Shown here piece by piece: positions 27,629-42,601 of a stretch of DNA of 42,601 bases. Under the pieces are notes generated by a model. It had not been told where the DNA came from and ran no database searches. It saw only the letters and a program-made list of their open reading frames with translations. The position numbers and the translations under genes were made by a program. The stretch's first letter is position 1; each line of letters begins with the position of its first letter. The stretch comes from a virus (taxonomy: Duplodnaviria > Caudoviricetes), in IMG/VR virus record IMGVR_UViG_3300038393_001228, positions 1-42,601 of that record. One strand, 5' to 3'.

Positions 27629-28164
27629 TCGCCAATCACCGCTTGGACAGCCAGCAGGGCCGTAACGGTCTCATGGTGCCGCTCCTCAATGCGCGTCTCG
27701 ATCTCGCGCACCGCGTGAATCAATGTCGTGTGATCCTTGCCGCCGAAGTGGAAGGCGATGTCGAGATATGGCACCGCCAAGCGTTTACGGGCGACGTAAA
27801 TAGCGACCTGGCGGGGCCGAGAGACGCGATAGGACTTGTCCGGCCCCATCAACTCGGTCACGGTGATATTGAAGTGCCGCGCGACAATTTCCTGAACCTG
27901 AATGATACGGGGATCGATCACTCGGTGCTTGACGAGGCCGTGAACCCGTCTCCTTATCGGTTTTGCTGCGACTACCTCGCGCGGCTTGAAGATCGGCTTG
28001 CCGGGCGGCGCGAAGCTGCCCCGCCCCTGGGCGCGCAAAATCGCGTCTCGGAGTCTTATGGATCCCTGGATAGCGCGATCGCGGTCGTTCCCCTGACGCA
28101 TGAAGTCGCCAAGCGGCGCGGCGTTTTGATCCAGCCCCTTAGGCTCCAAATGGGCGGCAATCAC
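27625..28164 (-). CDS. Protein with DnaA domain IV-like HTH
   Basis: IQEIVARHFNITVTELMG...RPRQVAIY...IAFHFGGKDHTTLIHAVREIE. Confidence 0.85.
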   Translation of the reverse strand: MIAAHLEPKGLDQNAAPLGDFMRQGNDRDRAIQGSIRLRDAILRAQGRGSFAPPGKPIFKPREVVAAKPIRRRVHGLVKHRVIDPRIIQVQEIVARHFNITVTELMGPDKSYRVSRPRQVAIYVARKRLAVPYLDIAFHFGGKDHTTLIHAVREIETRIEERHHETVTALLAVQAVIGE

Positions 28165-28382
28165 TTCGCTGAATCCTCCGGCATGTGCTTGACCATTTCC
28201 GCCTCGACCTGGGCCTCTGAAAATCCGCCGTAAGTTGTGGCGATGTGGGCGGGACGAATGCGGTCGAGAGCGTTCATGCTCGCCATGAACTCGATGAACC
28301 TGATGGTGTGGGCGCGGCGGGCCTCGATCGGATAGGCGGTGCCGTGCGGGTTGCTGCGCTCAGGGGTGGCGTTGTTGCTCAC
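28161..28382 (-). CDS. Hypothetical protein
   Basis: Coupled ORF in the early-left operon. Confidence 0.5.
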   Translation of the reverse strand: MSNNATPERSNPHGTAYPIEARRAHTIRFIEFMASMNALDRIRPAHIATTYGGFSEAQVEAEMVKHMPEDSAK

Positions 28383-28684
28383 TGGGCCATGTCCGCGAAC
28401 TGCGGCAGACGCAGCATAACCAGCGTCTCCCCGCGATCCTGCTTGAGGATCAGAAAGTCATGGTCGCCTAGTGCATTGACGATCCAGTCGGGAAGCGACT
28501 TGCGGGACTTGCACTCGCCCTTGAGCCTCTGCCCCCAGCCCGTGGTTAGGCAAAGGTCGCCCTTCTCGCGGCCGGCGCCGGAAAGCGGGACGCGGTAGCA
28601 TTCTAGACCGCGCTCCTGGAAATACAGGCGCGTCGAGTTTTCGAGCCTGTAGCCCTTCTGTGCTGGCGCTCTCCCCCCGGCCAC
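28379..28684 (-). CDS. Hjc-like Holliday junction resolvase (PD-(D/E)xK)
   Basis: KGYRLE...RVPLSGA...GD...ECK motif. Confidence 0.7.
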   Translation of the reverse strand: MAGGRAPAQKGYRLENSTRLYFQERGLECYRVPLSGAGREKGDLCLTTGWGQRLKGECKSRKSLPDWIVNALGDHDFLILKQDRGETLVMLRLPQFADMAQ

Positions 28685-28816
28685 GTCAGCTTATCCCAGC
28701 AAACGAGAGAACGTAGCGGGCAAACAGAACGATCAGGACGCACGCCCAAACCGTGACGGCCGATCCGGTTAGGAAGGCGAGAAAGAGGAGATACGCGGAC
28801 GCAACACGCTTGAGGA

Positions 28817-29011
28817 TCATGCCCCCAAACCCCTGCATTGCGCGCACGTTTCCCAATCGAGAACGCCGTGCTCGCAAGGGGCCATTCCCCGTATCCAGCT
28901 CTCGCGCTGCGCCGCCAGTTCCTCAGCCTCAAGCTTGGCGCGTTGCTCGGGCGGCATGGCATCTCGCTCAGCCTTAATACGGGCCATGATTGCTCGGATT
29001 TCGTCGCTCAT
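28817..29011 (-). CDS. Hypothetical protein with C-terminal Cys/His cluster
   Basis: CEHG...CAQC. ATGA coupling. Confidence 0.5.
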   Translation of the reverse strand: MSDEIRAIMARIKAERDAMPPEQRAKLEAEELAAQRESWIRGMAPCEHGVLDWETCAQCRGLGA

Positions 29012-29466
29012 GCGCGTAGCCTCACAACCTTACGGTCGAGCAGCGCTTGCTCACCGGGGCCAATGTCGCGGCCAGCTTCGCTTTCCGGATGGTGCGCCTG
29101 ATCCTTCGTTGCGATGAAATCCCGGCAACCGGCGGAGAACTCGTCGTAATCAATGCCGGAAGGAACGCGGACAACCGCGAATCCCTCGGGGCAGAGAAGG
29201 TTGAGCAAGTCGTCGGGAATGGCGCCGCACAGGCTGTAAACGGCACCTACCGGCATCTCGCACGGCTTGCGCTCAACGCTTCCGTTTTCGTTGCCAGGGA
29301 AGTATGAGCAGAGCGTCGAATACGGGATGCCGCTGTCGAAGCTGACGGCCTTGAGGCTGATGCCCCGGCGGTCGAGTTCGCGGCGGATCGCGCGTTGTCG
29401 GTCGCGCATGATATTGGATGCGTCACGCATGATGTTGCGCCTCCGTTCCGTTAGTTGCTGCGTCAT
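29008..29466 (-). CDS. HTH regulator (CII position)
   Basis: ISLKAVSFDSGIPYSTLCSYF HTH and HHPES motif, downstream of cro. Confidence 0.6.
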   Translation of the reverse strand: MTQQLTERRRNIMRDASNIMRDRQRAIRRELDRRGISLKAVSFDSGIPYSTLCSYFPGNENGSVERKPCEMPVGAVYSLCGAIPDDLLNLLCPEGFAVVRVPSGIDYDEFSAGCRDFIATKDQAHHPESEAGRDIGPGEQALLDRKVVRLRA

Positions 29467-29726
29467 GGAAATCGTCAGGAACCGCAGGCCACTCGCTGTT
29501 GGCCCAATCGTCGCCAGATTGTTCCCTGAGCTTCTGCGCGAGTTCGGGAGCGACGATACGCACCCACACTCGACCGATGAGGAAAGCGAATGTGATCGCG
29601 CCAGTGGCGATTACGAGGCCAGTGATGATCTGATCCCCCGCCACGGCTATGTTTCCGCCGTCAAAGGAATGCGGAGCGAGTCAGGGGTTGCTCGCTCCGC
29701 TGCGGCGCGGGAGTTGTGCGCCGACA

Positions 29727-29936
29727 TTATGCTGTCAGTCTAAGCGGCTTCCGGGGGAAGTCGCTCGTGGACAAGGGGATGCTCTTCTCGACCGCTAGTC
29801 TCAGCAGCGCAGATTGGCGCCACGTGGGGATGCTGTTCTTCAGCCCCCACGAACTCACCGTGGTAAAGGGCAGCCCCAGATCGCGGGCCACTTGCATTAC
29901 TCCGCCCAGGCGCTGAATGATGTCTGCGGCAGTCAT
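29727..29936 (-). CDS. cro: Cro-like repressor
   Basis: IIQRLGGVMQVARDLGLPFTTVSSW...IP, divergent from cI. Confidence 0.85.
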   Translation of the reverse strand: MTAADIIQRLGGVMQVARDLGLPFTTVSSWGLKNSIPTWRQSALLRLAVEKSIPLSTSDFPRKPLRLTA

Positions 29937-29942
29937 GGTGCG

Positions 29943-29991
29943 TCCCTACGCTGATCGTAGGGTTACGTCAAGCGGCTTTACGAAGTCCGTT
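29943..29991 (-). promoter_or_regulatory. pR-like promoter with two operators
   Basis: Minus-strand TTGACG at 29966-29971. Operators TACG-CTGAT-CGTA (29947-29959) and TACG-AAGTC-CGTT (29979-29991). Confidence 0.65.
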
Positions 29992-30027
29992 GTTTACGCG
30001 AGTTACGGTCTTCGGCAACCCGGAGCG

Positions 30028-30453
30028 GTGCTCGATACTCAAACACTGCTGGCCAGGCTGGCCGACAAGAAGATTCGGAACGCGGACATCGCGCGGGCGC
30101 TAGGCTTGCCCGACTCACGCATACCCGAAATCAAAGATGGCCGTCGGGCTCTGAAACTTGATGAGGCGGCAAAGCTAGTCCGAGCCTTCCAACTGGAAGA
30201 AGATGCGCCGCCTCTGCCGACCCCAATAATACGACTGGTTGTGCGCTATATTGCGGACGAGCTGGGCGCTCGGCCTCAAGAGCAGCGCCTTGAAGACTTG
30301 TCAGAAGACGTGAGAGCATTCGCTGCGTTCGTTGCGAATCCGAAGGTCCGGCGATCGATTGAAGCAGCAGAGGGATTTTTTGAGGCTCTTCGCCTTCGCA
30401 AACCGACAGATAGAGGAGTTCGGTCAGAAACCGATCCCGATCACGCCCACTAA
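30028..30453 (+). CDS. cI: CI-like HTH repressor (no S24 peptidase domain seen)
   Basis: IRNADIARALGLPDSRIPEIKDGRRALKLDEA HTH, divergent from cro. Confidence 0.75.
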   Translation: MLDTQTLLARLADKKIRNADIARALGLPDSRIPEIKDGRRALKLDEAAKLVRAFQLEEDAPPLPTPIIRLVVRYIADELGARPQEQRLEDLSEDVRAFAAFVANPKVRRSIEAAEGFFEALRLRKPTDRGVRSETDPDHAH

Positions 30454-30595
30454 ACTGTTCTCGTTTCGTTCTCACGCTAGCCACCCCGCTACTCGCCCTT
30501 CGAGCGAAGGGCAAGGGTCGGCCACAATTCGGCCAATCGCTAGATGACGTGAAGATGGTTAATGGGACCTTACTGCTTTGTCATGATTTCACTCC

Positions 30596-30636
30596 TACGA
30601 TTTTCGTTTGACAAGACGTTACGGTGGGCGTAGTAA
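30596..30636 (+). promoter_or_regulatory. pL-like promoter with two operators
   Basis: TTGACA-17-TAGTAA overlapped by TACG-ATTTT-CGTT (30596-30608) and TACG-GTGGG-CGTA (30620-30632). Confidence 0.75.
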
Positions 30637-30672
30637 CTGCCCCACGGCACACAGCCGACAGGAGCAGATCAA

Positions 30673-31587
30673 GTGGCGAACGAGCAATATCCGATCAAGA
30701 ATCGCTGGTCCGGCGAAGTTATGTTCACCGCCGAGATCACTTGTTCTCCGGATGCTCTGCCAAGCGTGAAACTAGGGCTGGCCGTAAAGGCTGCTCTTAA
30801 AGCGCGTGCCGACCTCGCGGGTGCCAACCTCGCGGGTGCCGACCTCGCGGATGCCAACCTCGCGGGTGCCGACCTCGCGGGTGCCTACCTCGCGCGTGCC
30901 AACCTCGCGGGTGCCTACCTCGCGCGTGCCAACCTCGCGCGTGCCAACCTCGCGGGTGCCGACCTCGCGGGTGCCTACCTCGCGCGTGCCAACCTCGCGG
31001 GTGCCTACCTCGCGGGTGCCTACCTCGCGGGTGCCGACCTCGCGGGTGCCAACCTCGCGGGTGCCAACCTCGCGGATGCCAACCTCGCGGGTGCCGACCT
31101 CGCGGGTGCCTACCTCGCGCGTGCCTACCTCGCGGGTGCCGACCTCGCGGGTGCCAACCTCGCGGGTGCCAACCTCGCGGATGCCAAAGGCTTCATTCCC
31201 GAGCGGACAACGCATTTGGCGTCTCTCAAATTCATGCCCGTCGTTCACGCCTTCAAGGTCGTGAATGAGCGCGGCGAAGGCCACATCAACGGCGGTCTGA
31301 AATACAAGATCGGCAAGCGCGTTTCGGTCAAGAATGCCGACACCGACCCGAACGAAATGTGCTCGGCTGGCATTCATGTGGCCGATCTGCCTTGGTGCCT
31401 TAAAGAATGGCGCGAAGGCTACCGCATCCTTCTGATCGAGCACACGAATGCGGACATTGCCTGCATTCCGTTGGGCACTGACGGCAAATACCGCCTGCAT
31501 GGCTGCACGCCGGTCAAGGATATCACCGACAAGCTGCGTGAATGCGGAGCGCTCCCCGCGCTTCAGGTTGAGAAGGCCGCGGCATGA
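30673..31587 (+). CDS. Pentapeptide-repeat protein with C-terminal globular domain
   Basis: 25 A(D/N/Y)LA(G/R/D) repeats. C-terminal CSAGIH...DGKYR domain. Confidence 0.9.
   Translation: MANEQYPIKNRWSGEVMFTAEITCSPDALPSVKLGLAVKAALKARADLAGANLAGADLADANLAGADLAGAYLARANLAGAYLARANLARANLAGADLAGAYLARANLAGAYLAGAYLAGADLAGANLAGANLADANLAGADLAGAYLARAYLAGADLAGANLAGANLADAKGFIPERTTHLASLKFMPVVHAFKVVNERGEGHINGGLKYKIGKRVSVKNADTDPNEMCSAGIHVADLPWCLKEWREGYRILLIEHTNADIACIPLGTDGKYRLHGCTPVKDITDKLRECGALPALQVEKAAA
30808..31182 (+). repeat. 15-bp tandem repeat x25, GCC(G/A/T)ACCTCGCG(GGT/CGT/GAT)
   Basis: Read directly from the sequence. Confidence 0.95.
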
Positions 31588-31793
31588 CCCGCCAACCTTT
31601 CGTCCGCCCGATCCCGGTCGAGCATCTTCATGCCCTGATCGACGCGCAGGGCTATCGCATCGTCCACCCGGCCCCGCCCGAGATCATCGCTGCGGCCGAG
31701 CTGTCGGACTGGGAACTCAACACACTGGATCGTGCCGGTTTCCGGCTGACCATTTGGGAACGGGTTGGGCTGTTCCTGAAGAGCTTTGCTTGA
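31584..31793 (+). CDS. Hypothetical protein
   Basis: ATGA coupling. Confidence 0.5.
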   Translation: MTRQPFVRPIPVEHLHALIDAQGYRIVHPAPPEIIAAAELSDWELNTLDRAGFRLTIWERVGLFLKSFA

Positions 31794-31816
31794 GCCTTAC
31801 TGGGAGAGGATTTGGA

Positions 31817-32416
31817 ATGGCAACGGTTGCAGAAATTCTTGAGCGCTGGGACTCGAACGAGGGAAAACCCTACAAGGGCTCGTTGATCGACTTCAAGGCA
31901 TACGAGGCCGACAAGTCCAACATCGGTTGCATGTGTGCGCAGGGCCAAGTCCTGCACCTGATCGGCGGGTGGTCGCCGACCAAGCTGCGCGGCACGGCGC
32001 AAGAAGAGGCTGACCGCGAAACCGCCAAGCTGCTCAACATTTCCAGAGCACATTCCATCCTCTTGCGCAGCATAAACGACAAGGCGGACGGCGCGCCTTC
32101 GATTGTCTTGACGCACCCTGAAAAGGTGCTCGGCGATCAGGCGAAAACCGTCCTCGCGTTCTGGCTTCATCTTGACCGGATGAAGGCCGGGGATTGGAAG
32201 AAGAGGGTGGCCGCCGCTTGGGCCGCCGCTGGGGCCGCCGCTAGGGACGCCGCTAGGGACGCCGCTAGGAACGCCGCTGGATATGCCTGTTCCGAAATCC
32301 AGGGCGCCCGCCTCATGCGCGAACGCGGACAGCCGTTCTTCTTCCTGCCGATGGTTGGTTTCTCCGATCCCGAAAGCATTCCGGCGCTTCCGGCTGACTA
32401 CGGGGTCGCCCAATGA
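31817..32416 (+). CDS. Hypothetical protein with Ala-rich 12-bp repeat (AAWA/AARD)
   Basis: GAGGA RBS, CMCAQG motif and a tandem GCCGCTNGGGNC run at about 32212-32280. Confidence 0.7.
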   Translation: MATVAEILERWDSNEGKPYKGSLIDFKAYEADKSNIGCMCAQGQVLHLIGGWSPTKLRGTAQEEADRETAKLLNISRAHSILLRSINDKADGAPSIVLTHPEKVLGDQAKTVLAFWLHLDRMKAGDWKKRVAAAWAAAGAAARDAARDAARNAAGYACSEIQGARLMRERGQPFFFLPMVGFSDPESIPALPADYGVAQ

Positions 32417-32710
32417 CCCGCACCTGCATCACAATCGCGATCTTCGTAGCCTCTTACTTTGCTCTGCAATTTGTGAGGGTGATGTGAGCTGGCGCAAGTT
32501 CGCGACTGTCGAATGTCCGGCCTGCGGTGCGCGGGTTGGAGAGCAATGCAGGACCGCCTCTGGCCGCGCCGCTGTAGCCATTGCTGCCATGTTCATCTGG
32601 ATCGCTTTCGGGACGTTTTGCACTCTCGTAGCTCACAACCTCGTTGCCGCATGGGGATGCATCGTCTGCGTCAATGTGTGGTCCGCAGCGAATTACATTC
32701 GTGGTGCAGC

Positions 32711-32917
32711 ATGAGCGGGCGCTGCCTTCATTGCGGTGAGCCGAACTGCCGCATCTGCGAATACCTCGAAGAGCCGGACGGCACGATGTGCCAAAGGTGC
32801 AACGACCAGCCTGCAATCGAAGACGAAACGCTGTGCATCTACTGCGATAGGTTGCTGAGTAAACAGGTTGAGAGGGAGCTTAGGTTTACTGTTAAGCAGC
32901 AGCGGAGGGTCGCATGA
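32711..32917 (+). CDS. Small Cys-rich (zinc-finger-like) protein
   Basis: CLHC, CRIC, CQRC and CIYC. ATGA coupling at both ends. Confidence 0.55.
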   Translation: MSGRCLHCGEPNCRICEYLEEPDGTMCQRCNDQPAIEDETLCIYCDRLLSKQVERELRFTVKQQRRVA

Positions 32918-33426
32918 CTGGGCGTTCCCCTTCGGGTCGGGCTGGTCGTCCTACGGACCAAGCCCCTACGGGTCTTGGCGATACCGCGACCATCCCTAAC
33001 GCACCGCGTTGGCGGCTGTGGGCCGTTATTCCATTCATCGCTGTCGGGTGTGGTGTGATGCTCTTTGTCAGCGTCCTCCGGGAACTGCTCGGTGGAGTTC
33101 ACCACGCGCTCTTGGCTATGCTCGAATGGCTTGCCTCCTTGGCGGGGCTTCCGAGGACGCAGCCGCGCGCCAACGATGAGGTTCCGAGCATCAAGGCGGA
33201 CGTTGCTGAGGATGCCTTTCGCGAGGCACTGAGGCGCTACCCCGAGGCCGAGCGCGGGCTTGTCTTTCTCTATGGCGCAAGCGGCCTTGGCCAGCGGATG
33301 CCGACCGAAAAGCAATTGGCATGGGCGCGCGAGAAAGCGTCAGCGATCGAAGCCCGTAGGGCCGGAACCGCGAAGGCGGGTCCGGTTCACGAGAGCGCGA
33401 CCCGTCAGGGGGACGCCCGTGACTGA
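32914..33426 (+). CDS. Hypothetical membrane protein whose N- and C-termini are encoded by repeat copies 1 and 2
   Basis: One TM segment. The ORF spans both inverted repeats. Confidence 0.45.
   Translation: MTGRSPSGRAGRPTDQAPTGLGDTATIPNAPRWRLWAVIPFIAVGCGVMLFVSVLRELLGGVHHALLAMLEWLASLAGLPRTQPRANDEVPSIKADVAEDAFREALRRYPEAERGLVFLYGASGLGQRMPTEKQLAWAREKASAIEARRAGTAKAGPVHESATRQGDARD
32920..33002 (-). repeat. Structured repeat copy 1
   Basis: Reverse complement GCGTTAGGGATGG...CCAAGAC-CCGTAGGG-GCTTGG...AGCCCGACCCGAAGGGGAACGCCC. Confidence 0.8.
33337..33418 (+). repeat. Structured repeat copy 2
   Basis: GCGTCAGCGATCGAAGCCCGTAGGG-CCGGAAC...GTCCGG-TTCACGAGAGCGCGACCCGTCAGGGGGACGCCC. Confidence 0.85.
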
Positions 33427-33465
33427 AACTAGTCCAGTAGGCAACGGAACCGATCGGGTGGCGAT

Positions 33466-33801
33466 GTGAGCGTTTACGTCGATGGCGAGCGCAACGAATT
33501 CGGTCGGATGGTGATGTGCCACATGTGGGCCGACACCCTTGCTGAGCTCCACCAGATGGCTGATGCGATCGGCATGAAGCGGGAGTGGTTTCAGCCACTA
33601 TCGTTTCCTCATTACGACGTGAGCCTGTCTCGACGCGCTGTCGCGGTTGAGCTTGGGGCTGTCCAGGTCGGACGACGCGAAGGCAGCGAAATCAGAAAGC
33701 GCATCTTTGCGCGGGGTTTCAGCGATGCCGAGCTTGCGGAGATACGCGCCGCCATCCCCGCTTACGACGCCAAGCGCAAACGGAGGCAGCATAATGCGTA
33801 A
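33466..33801 (+). CDS. DUF4031 family protein
   Basis: VYVD...MCHMWADTLAELH..A..IG.KREWFQ...PHYDV...R..AV..GA. Confidence 0.85.
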   Translation: MSVYVDGERNEFGRMVMCHMWADTLAELHQMADAIGMKREWFQPLSFPHYDVSLSRRAVAVELGAVQVGRREGSEIRKRIFARGFSDAELAEIRAAIPAYDAKRKRRQHNA

Positions 33802-33869
33802 CCCTTTCCAATATGATTTGGGGGAGAGTGTGAGGGGCAGTGATGTAGCTGACTTCTGCGACCTCATTT

Positions 33870-33956
33870 GGGCGAACGCTTCGCGCCGCGCGGTCGCGGC
33901 TTCGCCGTCTAGCCACTCTTCGGTGTCTAGCCCCTCCGGGCTTCCATCGCTTTCGC
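33870..33956 (-). repeat. Structured repeat copy 3
   Basis: Reverse complement GCGAAAGCGATGGAAGCCCGGAGGGG-CTAGAC...GCTAG...GCGCGGCGCGAAGCGTTCGCCC. Confidence 0.8.
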
Positions 33957-34005
33957 AATCCACCAGGGAAGGGGCGGAACCTAACAAGACCGCCCCTCGC
34001 AATTC

Positions 34006-34779
34006 GTGACCACGCAAGTGCAAACTGTCGAGAAGATCATCGAGGATGGTGGTGTTCAAACGCTCAACGGCGGCATCCTCAATGTGATCGCCCGCGCCGC
34101 TGCCGACCCGAAGACCGACGTGGACAAGCTCGAGCGCCTTCTGGCGATGCAAGAGCGTGTCATGGAGCGCGAGGCTAAGCTGGCGTATGAAACCGCCATG
34201 CGGGCCGCGCAGGAGGAAATCCGGCCCGTCCTTAAAAACCGCAAGAACCCGGAAACCAAGTCCACCTACGCGGATCTAGAGCAGATCAGCGACTTGGCCG
34301 ACCCGATCATCCACAGTCACGGCTTTTCCCTATCTTATGGGACGGCTGATTGCCCACTCGCAAATCACTACCGCGTAACATGCGAAGTGTCGCACTCTGG
34401 CGGGTATAGCAAGGATCACCAGGCCGACGTGCCGATTGATAATGTCGGGCCAAAAGGGACGCAGAATAAGACCAACACGCACGGGTTCGGCTCCGCGCTC
34501 AGCTACGGTCGCCGCTACCTCAAGGTTCTCATTTTCGACATCAAGATGACCGATGATGACGGGCGCGCTGCGGGGCGTGGCGGGCCAGTCAACAAGCAGC
34601 AACTGGAGGTTCTGAACGGCCTCTGCGATGCGGTCGGCGCCGACAAGATCGCCTTCTGCAAATACCTCAAGATCGCCTCTCTGAGCGAATTAGCCGCGGC
34701 CGATTACAACGACGCGGTTCACGTTCTGAAGCAGAAGAATCCGGACGCCGCACGTAACTATCTGACGGCGGGCAAGTGA
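34006..34779 (+). CDS. erf: ERF-family single-strand annealing protein
   Basis: DKLERLLAMQER, YADLEQI, HGFSLSY and GSALSYGRRY. Confidence 0.85.
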   Translation: MTTQVQTVEKIIEDGGVQTLNGGILNVIARAAADPKTDVDKLERLLAMQERVMEREAKLAYETAMRAAQEEIRPVLKNRKNPETKSTYADLEQISDLADPIIHSHGFSLSYGTADCPLANHYRVTCEVSHSGGYSKDHQADVPIDNVGPKGTQNKTNTHGFGSALSYGRRYLKVLIFDIKMTDDDGRAAGRGGPVNKQQLEVLNGLCDAVGADKIAFCKYLKIASLSELAAADYNDAVHVLKQKNPDAARNYLTAGK

Positions 34780-35429
34780 TGGAGATATTTACTTGCGAAC
34801 AGGGGTCGGATGAGTGGGTCCAGGCCCGCCTCGGCATCCCGACAGCCTCCGAGTTCCACACCATCATGGCGAAGGGCCGTGACGGCGGGGACAGCAAGAC
34901 GCGACGCACATACATGCTCAAGCTGGTTGGGGAAATCCTGACCGGCGAGCAGATGGAAGGTTACTCCAACCATCACATGGAGCGTGGCAAGGTGATGGAG
35001 GATGAGGCCCGCAGCCTCTACGCCTTCATGAAAGACGTTGAGCCGCAGTGCGTAGGCTTCATCCGCAACGGCAACAAGGGATGCAGCCCGGACTCACTGG
35101 TCGGAACGGACGGCGCGGCCGAAATCAAAACCAAGCTTCCACACCTCCAGGTTGATTGCCTGTTGGGCGGTCGCGTTCCACCTGAACACGTCGCCCAGTG
35201 CCAAGGCGTCCTGTGGGTAGCCGAGCGCGAGTGGATCGACTTCGTTTCATATTGGCCGAAGCTCCCGCTCCACGTCCACCGCTCACACCGCGACGAAGAG
35301 TATATCGCGAAGCTCGCGAGCGCCGTGGATCAGTTCAACGAGGAGCTGGCGGAAATGGTGGAGCGGGTCCGCGCCCACGGCGGCGACAACCTACGCAATG
35401 AACTCAAGGCATCTCTGGAGGCAGCATAA
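34776..35429 (+). CDS. YqaJ/lambda-exonuclease family protein
   Basis: [27 protein letters not shown] and QCQGVLWV. Confidence 0.9.
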
Positions 35430-35854
35430 TGGCATCCGTCAACAAGGTTATTCTCGTCGGCAATCTCGGGGCCGATCCCGAAGCCCGCTCGCTCAACAAT
35501 GGTGGCGAGGTCGTCAACATGCGGGTCGCCACCAGCGAGTCGTGGAAAGACGGCGACGGCAACCGCAAGGAGCGCAGCGAGTGGCACAACGTGGTCATCT
35601 TCAACGAGAACTTGGGCAAGGTAGCGAAGAGCTATCTCCGCAAGGGCTCGAAGGTTTACCTCGAAGGCCAGCTGCAGACGCGCAAGTGGACCGACCAATC
35701 CGGCAACGACAAATACACCACTGAGGTCGTCCTACAGCGGTTCCGGGGCGAGCTTGTGCTGCTGGATAGCAAGGGCGGTGGTGAGGCTCGCGGAACGTCC
35801 GAAGACCGGGGCGTGTTCGCGGGAACGACGGCGGATGACGAAATTCCGTTTTGA
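35429..35854 (+). CDS. ssb: Single-stranded DNA-binding protein
   Basis: [16 protein letters not shown]...EWHNV...EGQLQTRKW with a DDEIPF tail. Confidence 0.97.
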
Positions 35855-36237
35855 TGTTCTCACCCCGCGCCATAAAGCCGCGTAGGCAAAACTCGCACAG
35901 AGCTGACGAGTTCAAGCGCTGCCCAGCCTTCCTCCAATGGTTGCGCGGTCGGCCTTGCTACCTCGCGATTCATGTCCCCGGACACCAGTGCTGGGGCAAG
36001 GTGCGGGCCTGCCACTTCGATCCGTGGGGTGACAAGGGCGCTGGCACGAAGGTCTCGGATAACGCCTGTATGCCCATGTGTGACGGGGCGCATGATGAGC
36101 AAACGACGCGCTTAGGCTGGCCCAAGTTCCAGGCGAAATACAAGTTCGACGGGCGCGATGTCGTCAGCCGCTATTGGCTGGAGTGGCTTCACAACACGCC
36201 AATGGGCGCAAGCTGGAGGGCCAAGCAAGATGCATAA
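35851..36237 (+). CDS. HNHc-like/DUF968-type putative nuclease
   Basis: [10 protein letters not shown]...ACH...GTKVSD...PMC..AHDEQ. Confidence 0.65.
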
Positions 36238-36610
36238 GGTCATCCTCACCAACCCGTTTAGTCGCGAGCGGTTCAAGCGGATCGTTGACCAGGCGCCCGA
36301 TGGCTACGTGGCCGAGGTGCGCGAGCCCAAGCGGACGCTCGAACAGAACGACCTCATGTGGAGCCTGCTCACCGACATCAGCGTGGCCTGTCCGCTAGGT
36401 CGCCGGCACACCCCAGATGACTGGAAGGCGATCGCCATGAACGCCTGCGGTTGGGAGTGCCAGTTCGTGGAGGGCCTAGATGGTCGCCCGTTCCCCAAGG
36501 GGTTCCGCAGCTCGCGCCTGACCAAATCTCAGATGTCGCAACTGATCGAGTTCCTGTTCGCGTTCGGCGCCGAGCATGGCGTGAAATGGACGCACGAGGA
36601 GGCAGCATGA
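36230..36610 (+). CDS. ninB: NinB/Orf recombination protein
   Basis: KRTLEQNDLMWSLLTDIS...DWK...RSSRLTKSQMSQLIEFLFAFGAEHGVKW. Confidence 0.9.
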   Translation: MHKVILTNPFSRERFKRIVDQAPDGYVAEVREPKRTLEQNDLMWSLLTDISVACPLGRRHTPDDWKAIAMNACGWECQFVEGLDGRPFPKGFRSSRLTKSQMSQLIEFLFAFGAEHGVKWTHEEAA

Positions 36611-36748
36611 AACGCAACACCGCACTCAAACTGGTCGCAAGCCGTCCTCCTGAGCGGATCTACGGCAGTCAGAGGTTTATCGGTCTTACACGAAATGTAG
36701 GATTGGAAAGCCCGAGTAAGTTTGTTCCGACTTTGAAGGGGCCGCTCG

Positions 36749-37018
36749 ATGTCATCATCTAAGGGCGTTCCGGCTTCGCCGGCACCGCTTCAGCCGGCGA
36801 CAGGCTTCATCAACGCGATTGCCGACCGCTTTCAGGAAATGCATGTCCCGTCGCTCAGTCGCGACAAGGCGTTGCTGCTCGCATTGGTCGCGCTTGCGGA
36901 CGCCGAGACCGACCTGGGGCCGATAAATCATCCAGACTTCGATTGGTCGCTCGACGGCGCGCGGGAGATTGCCGACGAAAACATAGAGCATTGGGAGAGC
37001 CCAAATGCCGCTGACTAA
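36749..37018 (+). CDS. Hypothetical protein
   Basis: Acidic C-terminus DFDWSLDGAREIADENIEHWE. N-terminus reads through repeat copy 4. Confidence 0.55.
   Translation: MSSSKGVPASPAPLQPATGFINAIADRFQEMHVPSLSRDKALLLALVALADAETDLGPINHPDFDWSLDGAREIADENIEHWESPNAAD
36763..36816 (-). repeat. Structured repeat copy 4 (short, degenerate)
   Basis: Reverse complement GCGTTGATGAAGCC...AGCGGTGCCGGCGAAGCCGGAACGCCC. Confidence 0.55.
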
Positions 37019-37211
37019 GCTGACACCGCGTAACCAGCTTCGCGCCTTCTACGAAGACATCGATAGGATGAAGTCGGGCGAGCAGATGCTGCATTCGATT
37101 GGGCAGCACGTAGAACTGCTCATCAAGCGGATGGACGCGCTCGAAGCGTCAGTGATCGAAGCGGCGACAGCCGGCGAGACAACGGAGGGCAAAGATGGCG
37201 ACACGCGCTGA
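37005..37211 (+). CDS. Hypothetical protein
   Basis: GGGAG RBS. C-terminus reads into repeat copy 5. Confidence 0.5.
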   Translation: MPLTKLTPRNQLRAFYEDIDRMKSGEQMLHSIGQHVELLIKRMDALEASVIEAATAGETTEGKDGDTR

Positions 37212-37565
37212 AACAGTAGCGCGCAAGCGGCGGTGGTATCTTGCCAATCGCGAGATCCATCTTGCGCGCACTCGCGAGCGAGATGCCATCCGACGCTTTC
37301 TCACTGATTATTTGACCACTCACCACTGTGTCGATTGCGGAGAAGCTGACCCAATCGTCCTCGACTTCGATCATGTGGGCGAAAAGTCATTCGGCCTGTC
37401 CACCGCCACAACGAAACTGATGCGACTTGAACGGGTGCGAGCTGAGATCGCCAAGTGCGAAGTTCGCTGTGCCAACTGCCATCGCCGCAAGACCTACGCG
37501 GCTCAGGGTCACCGCAGCCGCTCGACCGAAGGACGACAGCCCGACCGCCGTAGGCGGGGACGCCC
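37146..37565 (+). repeat. Structured repeat copy 5, split by an HNH gene
   Basis: 5' half GCGTCAGTGATCGAAGCGGCGACAGCCGGCGAGAC (37146-37180). 3' half GCTCGACCGAAGGACGACAGCCCGACCGCCGTAGGCGGGGACGCCC (37520-37565). Confidence 0.8.
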
Positions 37566-37941
37566 AAACCCAGCTCAATCACCCACCCAAGGCAACCCCA
37601 TGACACACATAACTGACGAGCAGATCGAAGAAATGCGCGCCAAGTTCGAGCGGCGTTTCATGACGAGCGCAATCGACGAGTATTGCCCTGAAGAGTTCGG
37701 TGAACTGTTGGACGAAATCCAACGACTGCGGCAATCCGCCTCACCTGAAGGCGGGGTTAGCTCGGCGCTGCGGGAGGCGGTCATTGCTGATGTGATCGCC
37801 AAGTATGCGGGCGCATTCTACATCGACTGTGGCGATGCCGAGCCGGGAATGCTTGAGCGCGCAGCCAAGGCATTAGCGCATCAGGTCGAAGCCGCCATCA
37901 CACAAGGAGCGCCCAGCAACTCAGATCGGAGTGGGGAATGA
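37195..37941 (+). CDS. HNH endonuclease (about 37195-37510), in frame with a downstream ORF that has its own ATG at 37600
   Basis: CVDCGEADPIVLDFDH...EIAKCEVRCANCHRRKT zinc-HNH motif. No stop occurs before MTHITDEQIEEM. Confidence 0.8.
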   Translation: MATRAETVARKRRWYLANREIHLARTRERDAIRRFLTDYLTTHHCVDCGEADPIVLDFDHVGEKSFGLSTATTKLMRLERVRAEIAKCEVRCANCHRRKTYAAQGHRSRSTEGRQPDRRRRGRPNPAQSPTQGNPMTHITDEQIEEMRAKFERRFMTSAIDEYCPEEFGELLDEIQRLRQSASPEGGVSSALREAVIADVIAKYAGAFYIDCGDAEPGMLERAAKALAHQVEAAITQGAPSNSDRSGE

Positions 37942-38228
37942 GTAGGGCATTCACACCTGGTCCGTGGCGGGTCAGCCCACTCGGCAACTGCGATATTGAG
38001 AGCGGCGACGGCTCTCTGGAAATCGCGACCACGCATCAAGACATTTTGAACGGCGGCTATCGAGACCCGTCCACAGCGCAGGCGGATGCCCACCTGATAG
38101 CAGCGGCTCCTGAGCTTTACGCCAGCCTGTCCGATGCGGTCGAGCTTCTTGAGCAAGCAGGTTTCTCGACTGTCGAACATCGCGCCGCCTTGCTCAAAGC
38201 TAACCCCCATCAGGGAGATGATCGGTGA
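37938..38228 (+). CDS. Conserved small phage protein (TPGPW...A.LIAAAPEL)
   Basis: FTPGPW and ADAHLIAAAPELY motifs. Confidence 0.75.
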   Translation: MSRAFTPGPWRVSPLGNCDIESGDGSLEIATTHQDILNGGYRDPSTAQADAHLIAAAPELYASLSDAVELLEQAGFSTVEHRAALLKANPHQGDDR

Positions 38229-38662
38229 AATATCCGCGTATCGAGCCATGCGCTTTTTGCAGAGCGGTGTGCAAGACCGACGAACTCGGCTTTGACCACC
38301 CCCCTGTCGATAACTGCGTCCTGTCAGATGCGAGCTTTGCATGGGCAAGCGCAGATGCCTGGAACGCTCGCACCAAAGACCCGCGACCAGTATCGGGTGA
38401 GAAGCTGAATATCTGCGAACGGTTGTTGGCGATGCGCGTGTGCGAGGGCCATAGACTTAACCTTCGCGTCAATCCCGACGGCCCTGACGCTGTTGCCTTC
38501 ATCGGGAGCAGGGAAGCGCTGATCGAACGCCTGACTGAGGCGCTGGCCTACTACGCAAACGACGAACACTACGACTGCGGCGATGTTCCCGGCCACGTCT
38601 ACGTAATTGACGATCACGGGCGGTTCGCCCGCGCCGCCCTCCAAGCCGTGAAGGAGGCATAG
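38225..38662 (+). CDS. Lar-like zinc-finger hypothetical protein
   Basis: PCAFC...C...AWNART N-terminal pattern. EALAYYA...ARAAL C-terminus. Confidence 0.55.
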   Translation: MKYPRIEPCAFCRAVCKTDELGFDHPPVDNCVLSDASFAWASADAWNARTKDPRPVSGEKLNICERLLAMRVCEGHRLNLRVNPDGPDAVAFIGSREALIERLTEALAYYANDEHYDCGDVPGHVYVIDDHGRFARAALQAVKEA

Positions 38663-38677
38663 ATCATGGCTGATTTT

Positions 38678-38754
38678 GGGCGTACATTTCCCGCTCTCAC
38701 CCTTCGGGCTGAGCCGCTTCGCGTCTCATCGCTGCGCGTTTCGATCGGGGCCGC
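38678..38754 (-). repeat. Structured repeat copy 6
   Basis: Reverse complement GCGGCCCCGATCGAAACGCGCAGCGA-TGAGAC-GCGAAGCG-GCTCA-GCCCGAAGGGTGAGAGCGGGAAATGTACGCCC. Confidence 0.75.
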
Positions 38755-38931
38755 GTGAAGTCAGCGCGCGTCTCGACGGCGGAAATCGCCCATGCGAAGG
38801 CCGCAGCCGAGAAGGCTGGATTGCGCCTGGCTGCGTTCGAGAAGCATCCTGACGGAACCGTGAAGCTGGAATTTGGCGAGGAGCCAGCTAACGACTGGCG
38901 GGCGGGAAGTCCGCTATACAGCGTCAAATGA
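38755..38931 (+). CDS. Putative excisionase-position protein
   Basis: 58 aa, VKSARVSTAEIAHAKAAAEKAGL...HPDGTV...NDW. ATGA overlap with the integrase. Confidence 0.6.
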   Translation: MKSARVSTAEIAHAKAAAEKAGLRLAAFEKHPDGTVKLEFGEEPANDWRAGSPLYSVK

Positions 38932-39959
38932 GCAAGTTGCCAAAATACGTCCGCCAGAAGAAGGCAAAGGGCCGGACCTACTACTACTTCGATCTGGGTA
39001 AAGCTGACGATGGCCGGCGGCTGCTCGCGCCCCTCCCCGATATCAAGGACTCTCGATTCGGCGATTGCCTGTCCCGCGCGAAGGCCACCAGAACGAACCG
39101 CAAGAACCGCAAGGACATCCTCACGCTGGACGGCCTGATCCGCAGCTATGAGCGATCACCCGAGTTTCGCGAGAAGGCCCCCGCGACGAAGAAGAATTAC
39201 TCGATCTATCTGGCGAAGGCCAATGCCATGATCCGCTCTGGGTCAGGCGAAAGCCCCCCGGCGAGACAGATCGAGCGCACAGACGTTTTGGCATTACGCG
39301 ACAAACTGGCCGATTCGACCGGCGCTGCCAATCAGACGGTTCGGGCTTTGGGCGCGCTCTACAAATGGGCGAGCGACCGCCACGGGCTGAAGGACAACCC
39401 AGCACACGGGATTAAATTGTTCAAGGCCATCCCGCACGAGCCTTGGCCGGAACCGCTATTGGAAGAGGCTATCCTGGACCCGCAAGTGGGAATGCCGGTC
39501 GCCCTCCTCTACTTCACCGGCCAACGAATCGACGATGCGATCAAGATGAAATGGTCGGACATCAAAGGCGACACGATGGCCGTGTTCAACCAGAAGAAGG
39601 ACCGTCATGTCCAAGTGCCGATCCTGCCCGAACTGGCCGACATGCTCGCCACTCAAGAGAAGACGGCGATTACCATCCTGACCAACGCCAACGGGCGCCC
39701 GTGGACGCAGGGAGGGTTGCGGCTGAAGCTCCAGGCATGGGCGAAGGATCGCGGCCACAAGGTTGTTCCGCATGGCCTCCGCAAAAACGCGGTGATCTCA
39801 TTGCTGGAGGCGGGCTGCACTCACGCCGAAGTGTCGGGAATTACCGACCAGTCGCCGCAGATGGTCGAATATTACGGGCGGCGGGTTAATAAATTGAGGC
39901 TCGGAAGAGCCGCAATCGTCAAATTTGATGCCTCCAGACGAGCCCGGAACGAAGCATGA
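38928..39959 (+). CDS. int: Tyrosine integrase
   Basis: FTGQRIDDA, K, HGLRKNA, ITDQS...YY catalytic motifs and an N-terminal arm-binding YYYF. Confidence 0.95.
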   Translation: MSKLPKYVRQKKAKGRTYYYFDLGKADDGRRLLAPLPDIKDSRFGDCLSRAKATRTNRKNRKDILTLDGLIRSYERSPEFREKAPATKKNYSIYLAKANAMIRSGSGESPPARQIERTDVLALRDKLADSTGAANQTVRALGALYKWASDRHGLKDNPAHGIKLFKAIPHEPWPEPLLEEAILDPQVGMPVALLYFTGQRIDDAIKMKWSDIKGDTMAVFNQKKDRHVQVPILPELADMLATQEKTAITILTNANGRPWTQGGLRLKLQAWAKDRGHKVVPHGLRKNAVISLLEAGCTHAEVSGITDQSPQMVEYYGRRVNKLRLGRAAIVKFDASRRARNEA

Positions 39960-40115
39960 AAATGCAAACCAATGTGAAAACCGCTTGTTTTCCTATCGCA
40001 GATGCGATAATGGGAACTTGTCAATTTCGCGGAGATTTCAGCTAGTGTTCTAGCCCCGTTCTGTGAAAACCTGCCGGATCAATGCGGAGTGCGTCATGGA
40101 GAATGTGAAAACCGA
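39960..40115. other. Putative attP with arm-type repeats
   Basis: TGTGAAAACC x3 (39973, 40062, 40104) flank the inverted repeat TATCGCA-GA-TGCGATA in an AT-richer gap after int. Confidence 0.6.
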
Positions 40116-40632
40116 GAGACGTATCCAGCGCAGCTGGTTTAGCGCCAGTCCGTATGCCACAACGCCTGGGTTTCTTTTGAGTGGCGAGAGTCAGCGCCGT
40201 ATCGCGCCGCTAGGCCAAGGCGAGCGCGAACTGGGATGGATGGTGCTGCCCCCGTTCCAGCGTCCGCCTGTGTGGACCGAGGCCCAGAAGATTCGGTTTG
40301 TCGAAAGCTGCTGGCTTGGCTTGCCGGTAGGGGTGTTCATCATCAACCGCCCTAACAACATGCGGAGCCCCTTCTTTAATTGGCTGCTCGACGGTCAGCA
40401 GCGGGTGACGGCTCTCTACGAGTATATGGATGATGCGTTTCCCGTGCTTGGCTACCGCTATTCGGAGCTTGGCGATCCCGATTATCGCCAATGGCAGATG
40501 ACCACGCACTTCGGTCATCTGGAAACCCACTTGGAGGACGAGGAAGCGCTGCGCGATGTTTACGACCGCCTCGCTTACGGCGGCACTCCGCACGAGCCCA
40601 AAGACAGCCCTGCGCGCCCCTTAGGAGGATGA
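40063..40632 (+). CDS. Stand-alone DUF262 (GmrSD N-terminal/ParB-like) protein; start uncertain
   Basis: LPPFQRPPVW, F.ES...GLP.G and LLDGQQRVTAL. Confidence 0.85.
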   Translation: MKTCRINAECVMENVKTERRIQRSWFSASPYATTPGFLLSGESQRRIAPLGQGERELGWMVLPPFQRPPVWTEAQKIRFVESCWLGLPVGVFIINRPNNMRSPFFNWLLDGQQRVTALYEYMDDAFPVLGYRYSELGDPDYRQWQMTTHFGHLETHLEDEEALRDVYDRLAYGGTPHEPKDSPARPLGG

Positions 40633-40649
40633 GTTATAGAGGAGGATAA

Positions 40650-40856
40650 GTGATGATCTCGTGGCTCGATCAGGAGTTTATGGATGGTTACCGGGATGGA
40701 CGCGATCGAAACGCACCGGAACCTTCGGACAACCGCTCAGCGGCCTATCGCCACTCGTTTGGTGTTGGGCGGGCGGAGTTAGCCGGTTGCCCTATTCCCG
40801 CCGCGCTGTCCCGCGATCGAGCAGCGGAAATTGTTCGACAAGAGGCGGCGGCATGA
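40650..40856 (+). CDS. Small hypothetical protein
   Basis: GGAGG RBS. DGYRDG...NRSAAYRHSF..G. Confidence 0.6.
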   Translation: MMISWLDQEFMDGYRDGRDRNAPEPSDNRSAAYRHSFGVGRAELAGCPIPAALSRDRAAEIVRQEAAA

Positions 40857-41029
40857 CCGAGCGCTATCGCCTGAAGCAGGATGGGACGGTCGTGGCGGGC
40901 GTTGAGGGGCCGACTGCGCTGGATGAAATCATCCATTACACTCGTGTCTATGGTCAGGATGGCCCTGTGACCATCGAGCGCCACGAGAACGGCAAATGGC
41001 GCGAATATGCGCGGAGGCACCCAGCATGA
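40853..41029 (+). CDS. Small hypothetical protein
   Basis: MTERYRLKQDG...EIIHY...YGQDGPV. ATGA coupling. Confidence 0.55.
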   Translation: MTERYRLKQDGTVVAGVEGPTALDEIIHYTRVYGQDGPVTIERHENGKWREYARRHPA

Positions 41030-41055
41030 CCGCACAAACCAGATCGGAGTAACCC

Positions 41056-41313
41056 ATGACCTTACGAGATGAGATCATTGCCGCGATTCGCGCATCTACT
41101 TGGCCAACGAACGACGATCAAGTTGAGGGCATCGAAGAGGCGGCAGACGCTGTTCTCGCCCTGCCTGCGATTGCAGGGGCGCTTGAACTGGCTCGTTACC
41201 ATGCCGCCATCGGGACCAATCCGCTGCGCTCGGCCAGCGAGATCACAGCAAAGACTCTCGGCCACAGCATCAAGGTTCGGGATGAGTCTGTTTCTACCCA
41301 GGGGGAGGAGTGA
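41056..41313 (+). CDS. Small hypothetical protein
   Basis: GGAG RBS. EAADAVLAL motif. Confidence 0.55.
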   Translation: MTLRDEIIAAIRASTWPTNDDQVEGIEEAADAVLALPAIAGALELARYHAAIGTNPLRSASEITAKTLGHSIKVRDESVSTQGEE

Positions 41314-41329
41314 GATGGCGGGATATTTT

Positions 41330-41395
41330 GGACGTAATCCGGCTATCGTGAACTCAAAGCCTGCGGCTTTTCGCCCTTCGGGCTTCGATCCGGCG
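41330..41395 (-). repeat. Structured repeat copy 7
   Basis: Reverse complement CGCCGGATCGAAGCCCGAAGGGCG...GTTCACGATAGCCGGATTACGTCC. Confidence 0.75.
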
Positions 41396-41408
41396 TAAAG
41401 GAAGAAAC

Positions 41409-41783
41409 ATGGCAAACCTAAAGACCGAACTCGAAGAGGCTGAGACGTTCTACGGCGAACAGATAGAGGCGATGATTGTCGGCAAGCTGGAGGAATACCC
41501 TTATCCTGACGCGCAGCCTGACGAGAATGTTATTCTCAGTCGCGAGGCCGGGCTGGCCAAGGTCGATCGCGAATATGACGACGGCTTTGGCGGAGCGGAT
41601 TGCCACTCGCTCTATGCATGGACAGCATCGCGCATATTCTTTGTCTTTGAATATGACGGTGCCACGTCGCTGCATTGGTTGCCGAGACACCCGACCGCCT
41701 TAGAGGTTCACCTAAACGGCAATGCCCAGAGTTGGGATGAGATTGCGAAAATCATTGCGGCGCGCAAAGTGGCAACCGCTTGA
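41409..41783 (+). CDS. Hypothetical protein bracketed by repeat copies 7 and 8
   Basis: AGGAAG RBS. YDDGFGG...AWT...EYDG...LPRHP. Confidence 0.75.
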   Translation: MANLKTELEEAETFYGEQIEAMIVGKLEEYPYPDAQPDENVILSREAGLAKVDREYDDGFGGADCHSLYAWTASRIFFVFEYDGATSLHWLPRHPTALEVHLNGNAQSWDEIAKIIAARKVATA

Positions 41784-41785
41784 CC

Positions 41786-41863
41786 GCGATAGCGATACCC
41801 ACCGATAGGCCGAGACGCACAGCGGCTCGGTTCATGGGTAGCGCGGGCCGTCAGGCATCGCCC
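41786..41863 (+). repeat. Structured repeat copy 8
   Basis: GCGATAGCGATACCCACCGATAGG-CCGAGAC-GCACAGCG-GCTCGG-TTCATGGGTAGCGCGGGCCGTCAGGCATCGCCC. Confidence 0.85.
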
Positions 41864-41903
41864 AACCCCAACCAACCATCCAGAACTAGAGGGGGATTAG
41901 CCG

Positions 41904-42098
41904 ATGAGTGAGATTGCGCAAATGCCGCAGAACTTCACATGGGAGGGACCGCCGGTAATGCTACCCGTTCGGGCCATCGGTGGCGTTGTCATGGATGCGC
42001 GAAGACAAACGGTCGCGAACTGCCCGAACGGAGCGTTGGCCGATGTTGTGGCCTACAGCATCAACGTCGCCAACGGGGTCCACCCACCTACGGATTAG
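41904..42098 (+). CDS. Small hypothetical protein (last early gene)
   Basis: GAGGGGG RBS. Converges on the late-strand genes. Confidence 0.55.
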   Translation: MSEIAQMPQNFTWEGPPVMLPVRAIGGVVMDARRQTVANCPNGALADVVAYSINVANGVHPPTD

Positions 42099-42337
42099 CC
42101 GATACACCCGCCAAGGATGGTGAGCAGTCCGTCGCCCCATGCTTCAACGCGCACCAATCTGCCGGCGATCGGCTTGATGTCGTGATCCGCCTGACCGTTT
42201 AGCTCTGAGTGGATCTTGCCGGGTTTGTCCTTCTTGAGCTGTTCGTATTGCTCTTTGGTGATGCAGTGGGCGGTTGAGTAGCGGGTTGTGGCGCAGCCGG
42301 TGAGCAGCACGAGAGTGAGCAACGTGGCGGCCTTCAC
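42095..42337 (-). CDS. Lipoprotein, o-spanin (Rz1-like) candidate
   Basis: Signal peptide with lipobox LLTG-C, at the end of the late-strand gene run. Confidence 0.6.
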   Translation of the reverse strand: MKAATLLTLVLLTGCATTRYSTAHCITKEQYEQLKKDKPGKIHSELNGQADHDIKPIAGRLVRVEAWGDGLLTILGGCIG

Positions 42338-42516
42338 AATTCGCCCCGCAGATTTTCTAGGTCTTTGATCTGTGGCGACAGCAAGCCGTCCGCGAACTCC
42401 GACATGCCCCAGCGTTTCAAGTGCGTGTAGGCGTGGCGAAGCTGGGCGATATTGAAATCTAGCTTACGCAATCCCGGCGAAACATCGCTGATCGTCCGCA
42501 TAGATTCTCCTACCAA
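42334..42516 (-). CDS. Small hypothetical protein
   Basis: GTGA-coupled to the lipoprotein gene. Confidence 0.4.
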   Translation of the reverse strand: MVGESMRTISDVSPGLRKLDFNIAQLRHAYTHLKRWGMSEFADGLLSPQIKDLENLRGEL

Positions 42517-42601
42517 ATACGCCCTTGTTCCGCAAGAAAAATCGTGCTAGCAAGTGGCATGTTTGCTAAATTCTTGCGAGGTATTGGCGCATACGATTAT
42601 G

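Follow-up and report, generated by a model that had tools for sequence, protein, structure and literature searches.

Homing endonucleases are known from introns, inteins and the gaps between genes, and in group I introns their open reading frames (ORFs) lie in peripheral loops. Several small nucleases are also tied to repeated or structured sequences. The GIY-YIG homing enzyme SegB of phage T4 is found in a tRNA setting and reads a repeated tRNA motif (passages of PMC2330249), and tRNA clusters of actinophages carry HNH genes (passages of PMC6409571). IscB combines RuvC and HNH domains with PLMP and an arginine-rich bridge (passages of PMC9755519), and the tiny GIY-YIG nucleases called Ssn are linked to NTS/SRM hairpin repeats (passages of PMC11893778). 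Here we describe an HNH gene that interrupts the central loop of one copy of a ~90-nt four-hairpin repeat, which we call the module, in the virus IMGVR_UViG_3300038393_001228. The window analysed is the entire virus record (42.6 kb). On balance, this gene is probably a homing endonuclease that would cut empty modules and copy itself into them.

The locus resembles each of these systems in part. Like SegB and the actinophage HNHs, it has a small phage nuclease gene associated with a conserved multi-copy structured sequence; unlike them, the clade to which the window HNH belongs sits inside the repeated sequence and splits it, in a window that contains no tRNA gene. As with group I intron ORFs, the window ORF lies in a terminal loop, is partly read through the element, and splits the presumed site by its insertion. 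In contrast to those introns, the module is ~90 nt long, DNA-like, without an Rfam core, not known to splice, located at gene junctions, and apparently able to take the gene in either orientation. HEARO and the IscB omega RNA likewise tie an HNH gene to a structured element, but the window HNH has ~110 aa and no RuvC, RF02033 gives no match, and the orientation does not seem fixed. The Ssn systems, too, link a tiny single-domain nuclease to a hairpin repeat that greatly outnumbers it and probably works as single-stranded DNA (ssDNA), whereas the window enzyme is an HNH rather than a GIY-YIG nuclease, the repeat is a 90-nt multi-branch fold rather than a 30-nt hairpin, and the gene lies inside one copy. 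Searches of the open-licence literature, supplements apart, gave no description of an HNH inserted in this module; motif tables (for example those of PMC5737381) could hold the module.

An HNH gene within one copy of the module

The split copy and the ORFs that run through it are arranged as follows.

37005..37211, plus strand: upstream ORF of 68 aa without family match, whose frame crosses the 5' half and overlaps the beginning of the HNH gene
37146..37180, plus strand: 5' half of the split copy, with outer-stem strand GCGTC, helix-2 strand GTGATC, hairpin 1 and central-stem strand CGAGAC
37184..37188, plus strand: GGAGG ribosome-binding site (RBS), 6 nt upstream of the ATG, from the sequence
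37195..37941, plus strand: HNH ORF of 248 aa, from the ORF list and a PHROG match; the Cys4-HNH occupies about residues 1-108
37520..37567, plus strand: 3' half of the split copy, with GCTCG, hairpin 3, helix-2 strand CAGCCC, hairpin 4, outer-stem strand GACGC and CCA

CGAGAC (37175-37180) and GCTCG (37520-37524) are separated by 339 nt, within which the ATG at 37195 is followed by the HNH motifs CVDC (starting at 37327), DFDH (37363) and CANCH (37468). The protein matches PHROG 2255 (E 1.6e-23) and 3106 (E 9e-17), both labelled HNH endonuclease. To score the flanks, one hidden Markov model (HMM) per repeat half was built from 23 copies on other contigs, the window copies being excluded. The 5' flank scored 21.6 bits (E 1.2e-5) and the 3' flank 24.3 bits (E 1.4e-6), the latter being the best 3' half within the window; half-models from 86 other copies gave 16.9 and 19.4 bits, respectively. 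Across the insert the outer stem pairs (GCGTC 37146-37150 with GACGC 37559-37563), and so does the central stem CGAG/CTCG. An earlier note on this DNA, made from its letters alone, had described the two strands about 340 bp apart with GGAGG and zinc-HNH motifs between them, all of which were found in place, and the insertion in the central loop that it proposed is borne out by the half scores and the stems that pair across the insert.

Because one public contig spans 36950-37605 with zero differences, the split copy is no artefact of assembly. In 11 soil or rhizosphere runs, at least half of the words sampled from 36500-38300 are present, and no RNA run is among those listed as sharing words of this segment. 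Contigs that join both halves directly were absent from seven runs; among loose ends, the same soil runs contain empty copies whose 3' side starts like that of the window copy.

The earlier statement that the gene sits exactly in the loop holds for the insertion point but not for the gene's end: the ORF has no stop in the loop and runs to its first stop at 37941. Residues 109-124 are encoded by the 3' repeat half, and from residue 136 (ATG 37600) the frame continues in-frame as the next gene, which was separately predicted as a 113-aa protein (P0243). The AF2 model of residues 1-129 has a pLDDT of 87.7. A consensus scan found no sense promoter for the insert, which has its own RBS. As a side observation, the DFDH codons (37362-37374) form the complement of GATCGAAG, a conserved stretch of the 5' half, which is probably a coincidence. 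A second, decayed 3' half within the HNH start was considered and dropped, as it gave no half-model match at E up to 30.

Are the two halves from the same copy? Both covarying helix-2 pairs of the split copy are broken (T37153.C37541 and C37157.C37537), although each half by itself is of a normal subtype. In intact copies, 5' halves with T..C go with G..A (4/4), and 3' halves with C..C go with G..G (14/14). Both variable pairs are broken in 1 of 85 intact copies compared to 29% of random half combinations, and the halves of the filled copy therefore probably derive from different copies. In predicted folds, the 5' helix strand of the filled copy pairs with HNH coding sequence, and this copy probably no longer folds like the empty ones. 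Thus, the halves, which had been called intact, are each significant, but they are of mismatched subtypes and leave two helix-2 pairs broken.

The site differs in a related phage. Contigs in four runs link 36729 to 37576 through 627 other letters, and in the related phage L387 an unrelated HNH_3 gene with an N-terminal zinc finger (5403-6011; Pfam HNH_3, E 1.5e-8) replaces window positions 36730-37575. In that phage only the CGCCC end of the module is retained. Since homology resumes at this module end behind a different nuclease, the comparison indicates that nuclease genes are exchanged at the window HNH site, with a boundary at the end of the module.

The module and its distribution

When folded, the module has an outer stem and a second helix in which an A.G mismatch is conserved, together with a central stem-loop and as many as three small hairpins. 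A covariance model (CM) built from 27 copies, including four window copies (A, B, D and E), found five strong unsplit copies and a degenerate one in the window, on both strands:

32917..33004, minus strand: unsplit copy A, CM 70.0 bits (training set), DNA fold z -4.1
33335..33421, plus strand: unsplit copy B, CM 68.0 bits (training set)
33867..33958, minus strand: unsplit copy F, upstream of the ERF-YqaJ-SSB-NinB block, CM 57.6 bits (outside the training set)
38675..38756, minus strand: unsplit copy D, lacking hairpin 4 and lying upstream of the integrase, CM 70.5 bits (training set)
41327..41398, minus strand: degenerate copy G, CM 24.2 bits, E 0.002
41784..41866, plus strand: unsplit copy E, CM 56.8 bits (training set), DNA fold z -4.2

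Plain repeat finding did not detect this family in the window. The string that the earlier note took as its mark, GAGAC and GCTC around a short loop, proved uninformative: as GAGAC-N5-14-GCTC it has 4 occurrences in the window, where chance alone would give 5.9, and just 2 of the 4 belong to repeat copies. Instead, covariation defines the family. Pairing is kept in 98.4% of 485 cells, and both sides vary in 12 of 18 pairs, a count that 0 of 500 shuffles attained but that is inflated by the kinship of the module sequences. RNA transcribed from either strand is expected to favour wobble pairs. Among the 1548 cells of 86 distinct aligned copies (a set that overlaps in part with the CM training set), 1479 are Watson-Crick, 13 are G.T and 11 are A.C, and 166 of 264 three-base loops are GNA. 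Because G.T and A.C are equally rare and GNA loops frequent, the module points to a DNA fold, likely acting as ssDNA. Rfam gave no match for the module, either in the window at gathering level or, at E up to 5, anything relevant in 28000-42601. As a candidate primosome assembly site of the phiX174 type, the module was looked for in phiX174 and ColE1, and neither had a CM match at E up to 2, although the 27-copy model may miss remote likeness.

The module extends far beyond this phage, to many other phages and to plasmids: a single copy has matches in at least 5000 plasmids, of which 3983 are conjugative. The CM finds two copies in the F plasmid's leading region (64.9 and 56.9 bits), within repeated blocks located upstream of ssb and of the gene at F 64032, plus three in the ardA-ccg-ardB region of IncN:

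F 58088-58174 and 63476-63562 (L635 28089-28175 and 33477-33563), antisense to the leading genes: F module copies, by CM
L630 647-741, 1225-1319 and 3501-3595, antisense to the leading genes: IncN module copies, by CM

In F, Frpo2 and Frpo1 have been placed upstream of ssb and ygeA (passages of PMC9849209), and the IncN region has been named the CUP regulon (passages of PMC3490853). Neither the module nor an HNH within it is described in the passages of these two papers on the F Frpo and IncN CUP blocks. The F module lies ~250-300 nt upstream of an AT-rich stem-loop that we took, from its sequence, as the putative Frpo promoter; the module appears distinct from the Frpo promoter hairpin.

At phage loci, neighbouring copies form 37 pairs, of which 27 are divergent, 7 convergent and 3 tandem. 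Divergent pairs flank single variable genes, with the CGCCC ends outward and with frames that often cross both copies. In the window, copies A and B flank an ORF whose frame runs through both, and copies G and E flank another; related phages show breaks of homology near module ends. This arrangement looks like a cassette system. Examples of divergent pairs around one gene are:

Window 32914-33426: ORF between copies A and B
Window 41409-41783: ORF between copies G and E
L291 1101-1553 and L380 2475-2873: single genes at other phage loci

Elsewhere, in L540 (1493-1531), a 5' half is broken off at the central loop; an excisionase-like gene and an integrase follow immediately, and no 3' half lies within 1.5 kb. 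Another module-bearing phage locus, L269, contains a skipping-rope RNA (2902-3015; RF02924, 41.6 bits).

Profile searches of the window proteins describe a tailed, temperate phage whose head and tail genes lie on the minus strand, the plus strand carrying an early block (ERF, YqaJ, SSB, NinB and integrase). At the DNA level this early block best matches phages of Bradyrhizobium, Caulobacter and Paracoccus, and for this reason the host is probably an alphaproteobacterium. The recombination genes of this block are placed by Pfam hits:

34006..35854, plus strand: ERF annealing protein, YqaJ exonuclease and SSB

Between SSB and NinB lies another HNH-like gene, distinct from that of the split copy (35851-36237; PHROG 131, E 8e-6). 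Further upstream, 30673-31587 encodes a pentapeptide-repeat protein with a 15-nt tandem array, found also in the related phage L387, and the ORF at 31448-32416 contains at least 5 tandem 12-nt units (32209-32280).

Close relatives and the wider HNH family

In a tree of 69 rows, the window HNH falls within a 17-row clade. C45, C48, D59, H60, C92, N94, C95 and H96 are invariant in all 17 rows, as in a Cys4 zinc HNH; the loop Asn position is Gly67 in the window HNH, a Gly shared with several relatives. None of the 50 DNA-backed loci of the tree falls in this clade, whose other 16 members are known from protein alone. Protein-led scans of viral, metagenome (44/64 parts) and genome contigs, INPHARED and PLSDB found no close-clade member, and among 401 sampled genomes from the class of genome G001, G001 alone matched.

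We therefore read the repeat from the proteins themselves. The best possible back-translation of each protein end was scored against half-models from 86 empty copies. The controls were protein tails and heads taken from loci without the element and from other homologues. Read as a sense 3' half, the C-terminal tails of P0001 and P0056 scored 35.9 and 34.0 (reached by 0/370 control tails), and that of P0036 was borderline at 23.3 (1/370). Read as an antisense 5' half, the tails of P0009 and P0011 scored 29.6 and 28.1 (0/428 controls). The N-terminal extension of P0036 scored 37.6 as a sense 5' half (0/215 controls), and by codon-table reasoning three covarying positions forced by the amino acids of this protein agree between its two ends. 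At the codon level, every match starts at the central stem, while the distance from CANCH varies from 9 to 18 codons. The top five scores among the 120 first protein hits all belong to the 16 non-window members of the clade; at 26 bits, a threshold set after the scores were known, 5/16 clade proteins stand against 0/104 others (Fisher p 2e-5), and for tails of at least 17 aa the counts are 5/10 and 0/21. The test was calibrated on P0242, whose N-terminus had looked repeat-coded by eye and was rejected, as its DNA shows only the last module bases; it scored 12.7, a correct negative. In a blastp comparison with translated modules, which has low power, P0011 and P0036 alone exceeded the non-clade maximum of 28.2 bits. 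We infer that at least five close relatives sit in the same loop, three in sense (P0001, P0036 and P0056) and two in antisense (P0009 and P0011).

The wider family is very large (22,504 representatives at E up to 0.001), and the search of representatives returned no relative closer to the window HNH than those of the initial protein set. Many relatives are tandem double-HNH proteins of ~300 aa. The window HNH is a single domain without a RuvC region and without an IscB-type Pfam or NCBIfam match, and a sequence search of the PDB found no relative. Homologues tend to lie near tRNA genes: 161 of 193 distinct sequences were flanked by 400 nt on either side, and 98 of the 161 lie no more than 300 nt from a tRNA gene, compared to 157 of 1896 random positions (8%). 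Bacterial genome contigs show the same adjacency (46/67 genome loci), so it is not confined to phages; L091 and L098 have tRNA-Arg on either side of the homologue. Groups that are sister to the clade lie next to tRNA genes or are free. As a lead only, the 3' strand of the central stem is one base off the tRNA T-arm consensus. Among the plasmids of PLSDB, only 8 carry even a distant HNH homologue.

Probable homing and the alternatives

How might the gene have come to occupy the loop? A homing endonuclease fits because the site is fixed, both orientations appear to occur, the halves are hybrid, and the association persists in proteins at 48-66% identity to the window HNH. Filled and empty alleles of one site were found, one filled copy being seen in DNA, five inferred and many empty. 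The module is older and far commoner than its insert, and a tRNA-adjacent HNH lineage would have entered its central loop. The putative nuclease would cut at or near the empty central stem-loop and spare its own allele because the insertion splits the site; the phage ERF, YqaJ and SSB proteins could then repair the break with the 35-48-nt halves as homology arms. Repair between non-allelic copies as well would produce hybrid halves, and the short inverted central stem may let the insert flip, so that it would be co-directional with early transcription whatever the direction of the host copy. Homing into empty copies, one of the earlier proposals, is kept as the best, still putative, mechanism, while the overall interpretation from which it came is supported in part.

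Several observations weigh against homing. The main difficulty is that six empty copies persist beside the gene, where efficient cutting should fill or lose them; the HNH may be subtype-specific, weak or dead. Clade support (94/91) is just under the starred level. The recurrence in the loop comes from back-translation, the window supplying the one DNA sequence of the clade, and 11/16 clade proteins fail the protein-end test. Six of these have tails of 16 aa or less, too short to judge, but the longer-tailed P0032, P0034, P0047, P0004 and P0012 score within the controls (P0034, P0012 and P0004 had looked repeat-coded by eye and were not counted), and two non-clade proteins reach 25.7-26.0 on 50-aa heads. 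The window HNH lacks five residues of an N-terminal helix present in relatives and has no stop of its own. Its structural matches are weak, the best Foldseek hits being Cap5 (E 0.22) and the Gme HNH nickase (E 2.2), and comparison with 4h9d gave a VIA Z of 3.6, a weak HNH match. None of 79 distinct 5' halves is HNH-split, filled copies being rare, and pattern scans of viral contigs for more of them, one of which covered 6/64 parts, returned chance matches only. Finally, none of 240 distant homologue loci (~35-63% identity) has a module half beside the gene. Taken alone, these loci speak against the earlier note's reading, since no halves were found there; yet they do not test the clade, which contains none of the tree's DNA-backed loci, and at the protein level 5/16 of its closest members have repeat-like ends.

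A possible though rather unlikely alternative is that the gene is a free-standing homing endonuclease or a passenger, which entered once at a tolerated site, has any target in a neighbouring gene, and spread by cassette recombination. The excess of divergent module pairs around variable genes, with homology breaks near module ends, would provide such a route. The survival of six empty copies in the same genome, the unrelated HNH outside any loop at the same locus in the relative, and the hybrid halves, which recombination through the HNH between two filled copies would likewise yield, all agree with passive spread. However, it poorly explains both orientations at one stem, and equally the same internal site kept across proteins that share only 48-66% identity with the window HNH.

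That the filled copy is an autonomous master of which the short copies are non-autonomous derivatives, its fold perhaps serving as an RNA cofactor or intron as in HEARO/IscB and group I systems, was the earlier proposal and is improbable, even though an ORF with its own RBS does lie in a peripheral loop of a strongly covarying fold and the clade appears, from its protein ends, to recur in the loop. An autonomous and non-autonomous pair should co-occur and depend on each other, which was not found: at least 5000 plasmids have empty copies and 8 have a distant HNH, the 79 5' halves include none split by one, and the clade comes from a largely tRNA-adjacent family, its sister groups being tRNA-adjacent or free. 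We consider the gene likely to be a selfish gene rather than the master copy of the repeat family. An RNA role is disfavoured by the apparent presence of the gene in both orientations, by G.T being rare on both strands, as A.C is, by the many GNA loops, and by the lack of an Rfam match or a RuvC in a protein of ~110 aa; moreover, the helix that closes the filled copy is broken twice, and its 5' strand is predicted to pair with HNH coding sequence. More improbable still is a domesticated partner that processes folded ssDNA modules for cassette exchange or harms competing phages or incoming plasmids: although Ssn and NTS offer a precedent (passages of PMC11893778), and the F and IncN modules, lying opposite the leading-gene strand, would enter as single strands, such a gene is missing from most elements that carry the module, whole repeats flank Ssn genes rather than one repeat containing the gene, and the helix of the host copy is broken along with the insertion.

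Within the homing reading, it is a tentative and on present evidence unlikely suggestion that the endonuclease reads structure, recognising the folded module, single-stranded or extruded, rather than duplex sequence. If so, it could insert into any copy, whichever way round, both in unrelated phages and in conjugative plasmids at their leading regions, and it would be a selfish gene hosted by a mobile DNA fold that mobile elements share.

A nuclease recognising the module, which sits in the leading regions of F and IncN, would provide the first biochemical handle on it, and might be a compact structure-specific nuclease. The case would also show how nucleases of a tRNA-adjacent family can move on to a different repeated target. 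A homing nuclease appears to have colonised, in both directions, a small multi-copy DNA fold, which would offer it many paralogous targets in unrelated phages.
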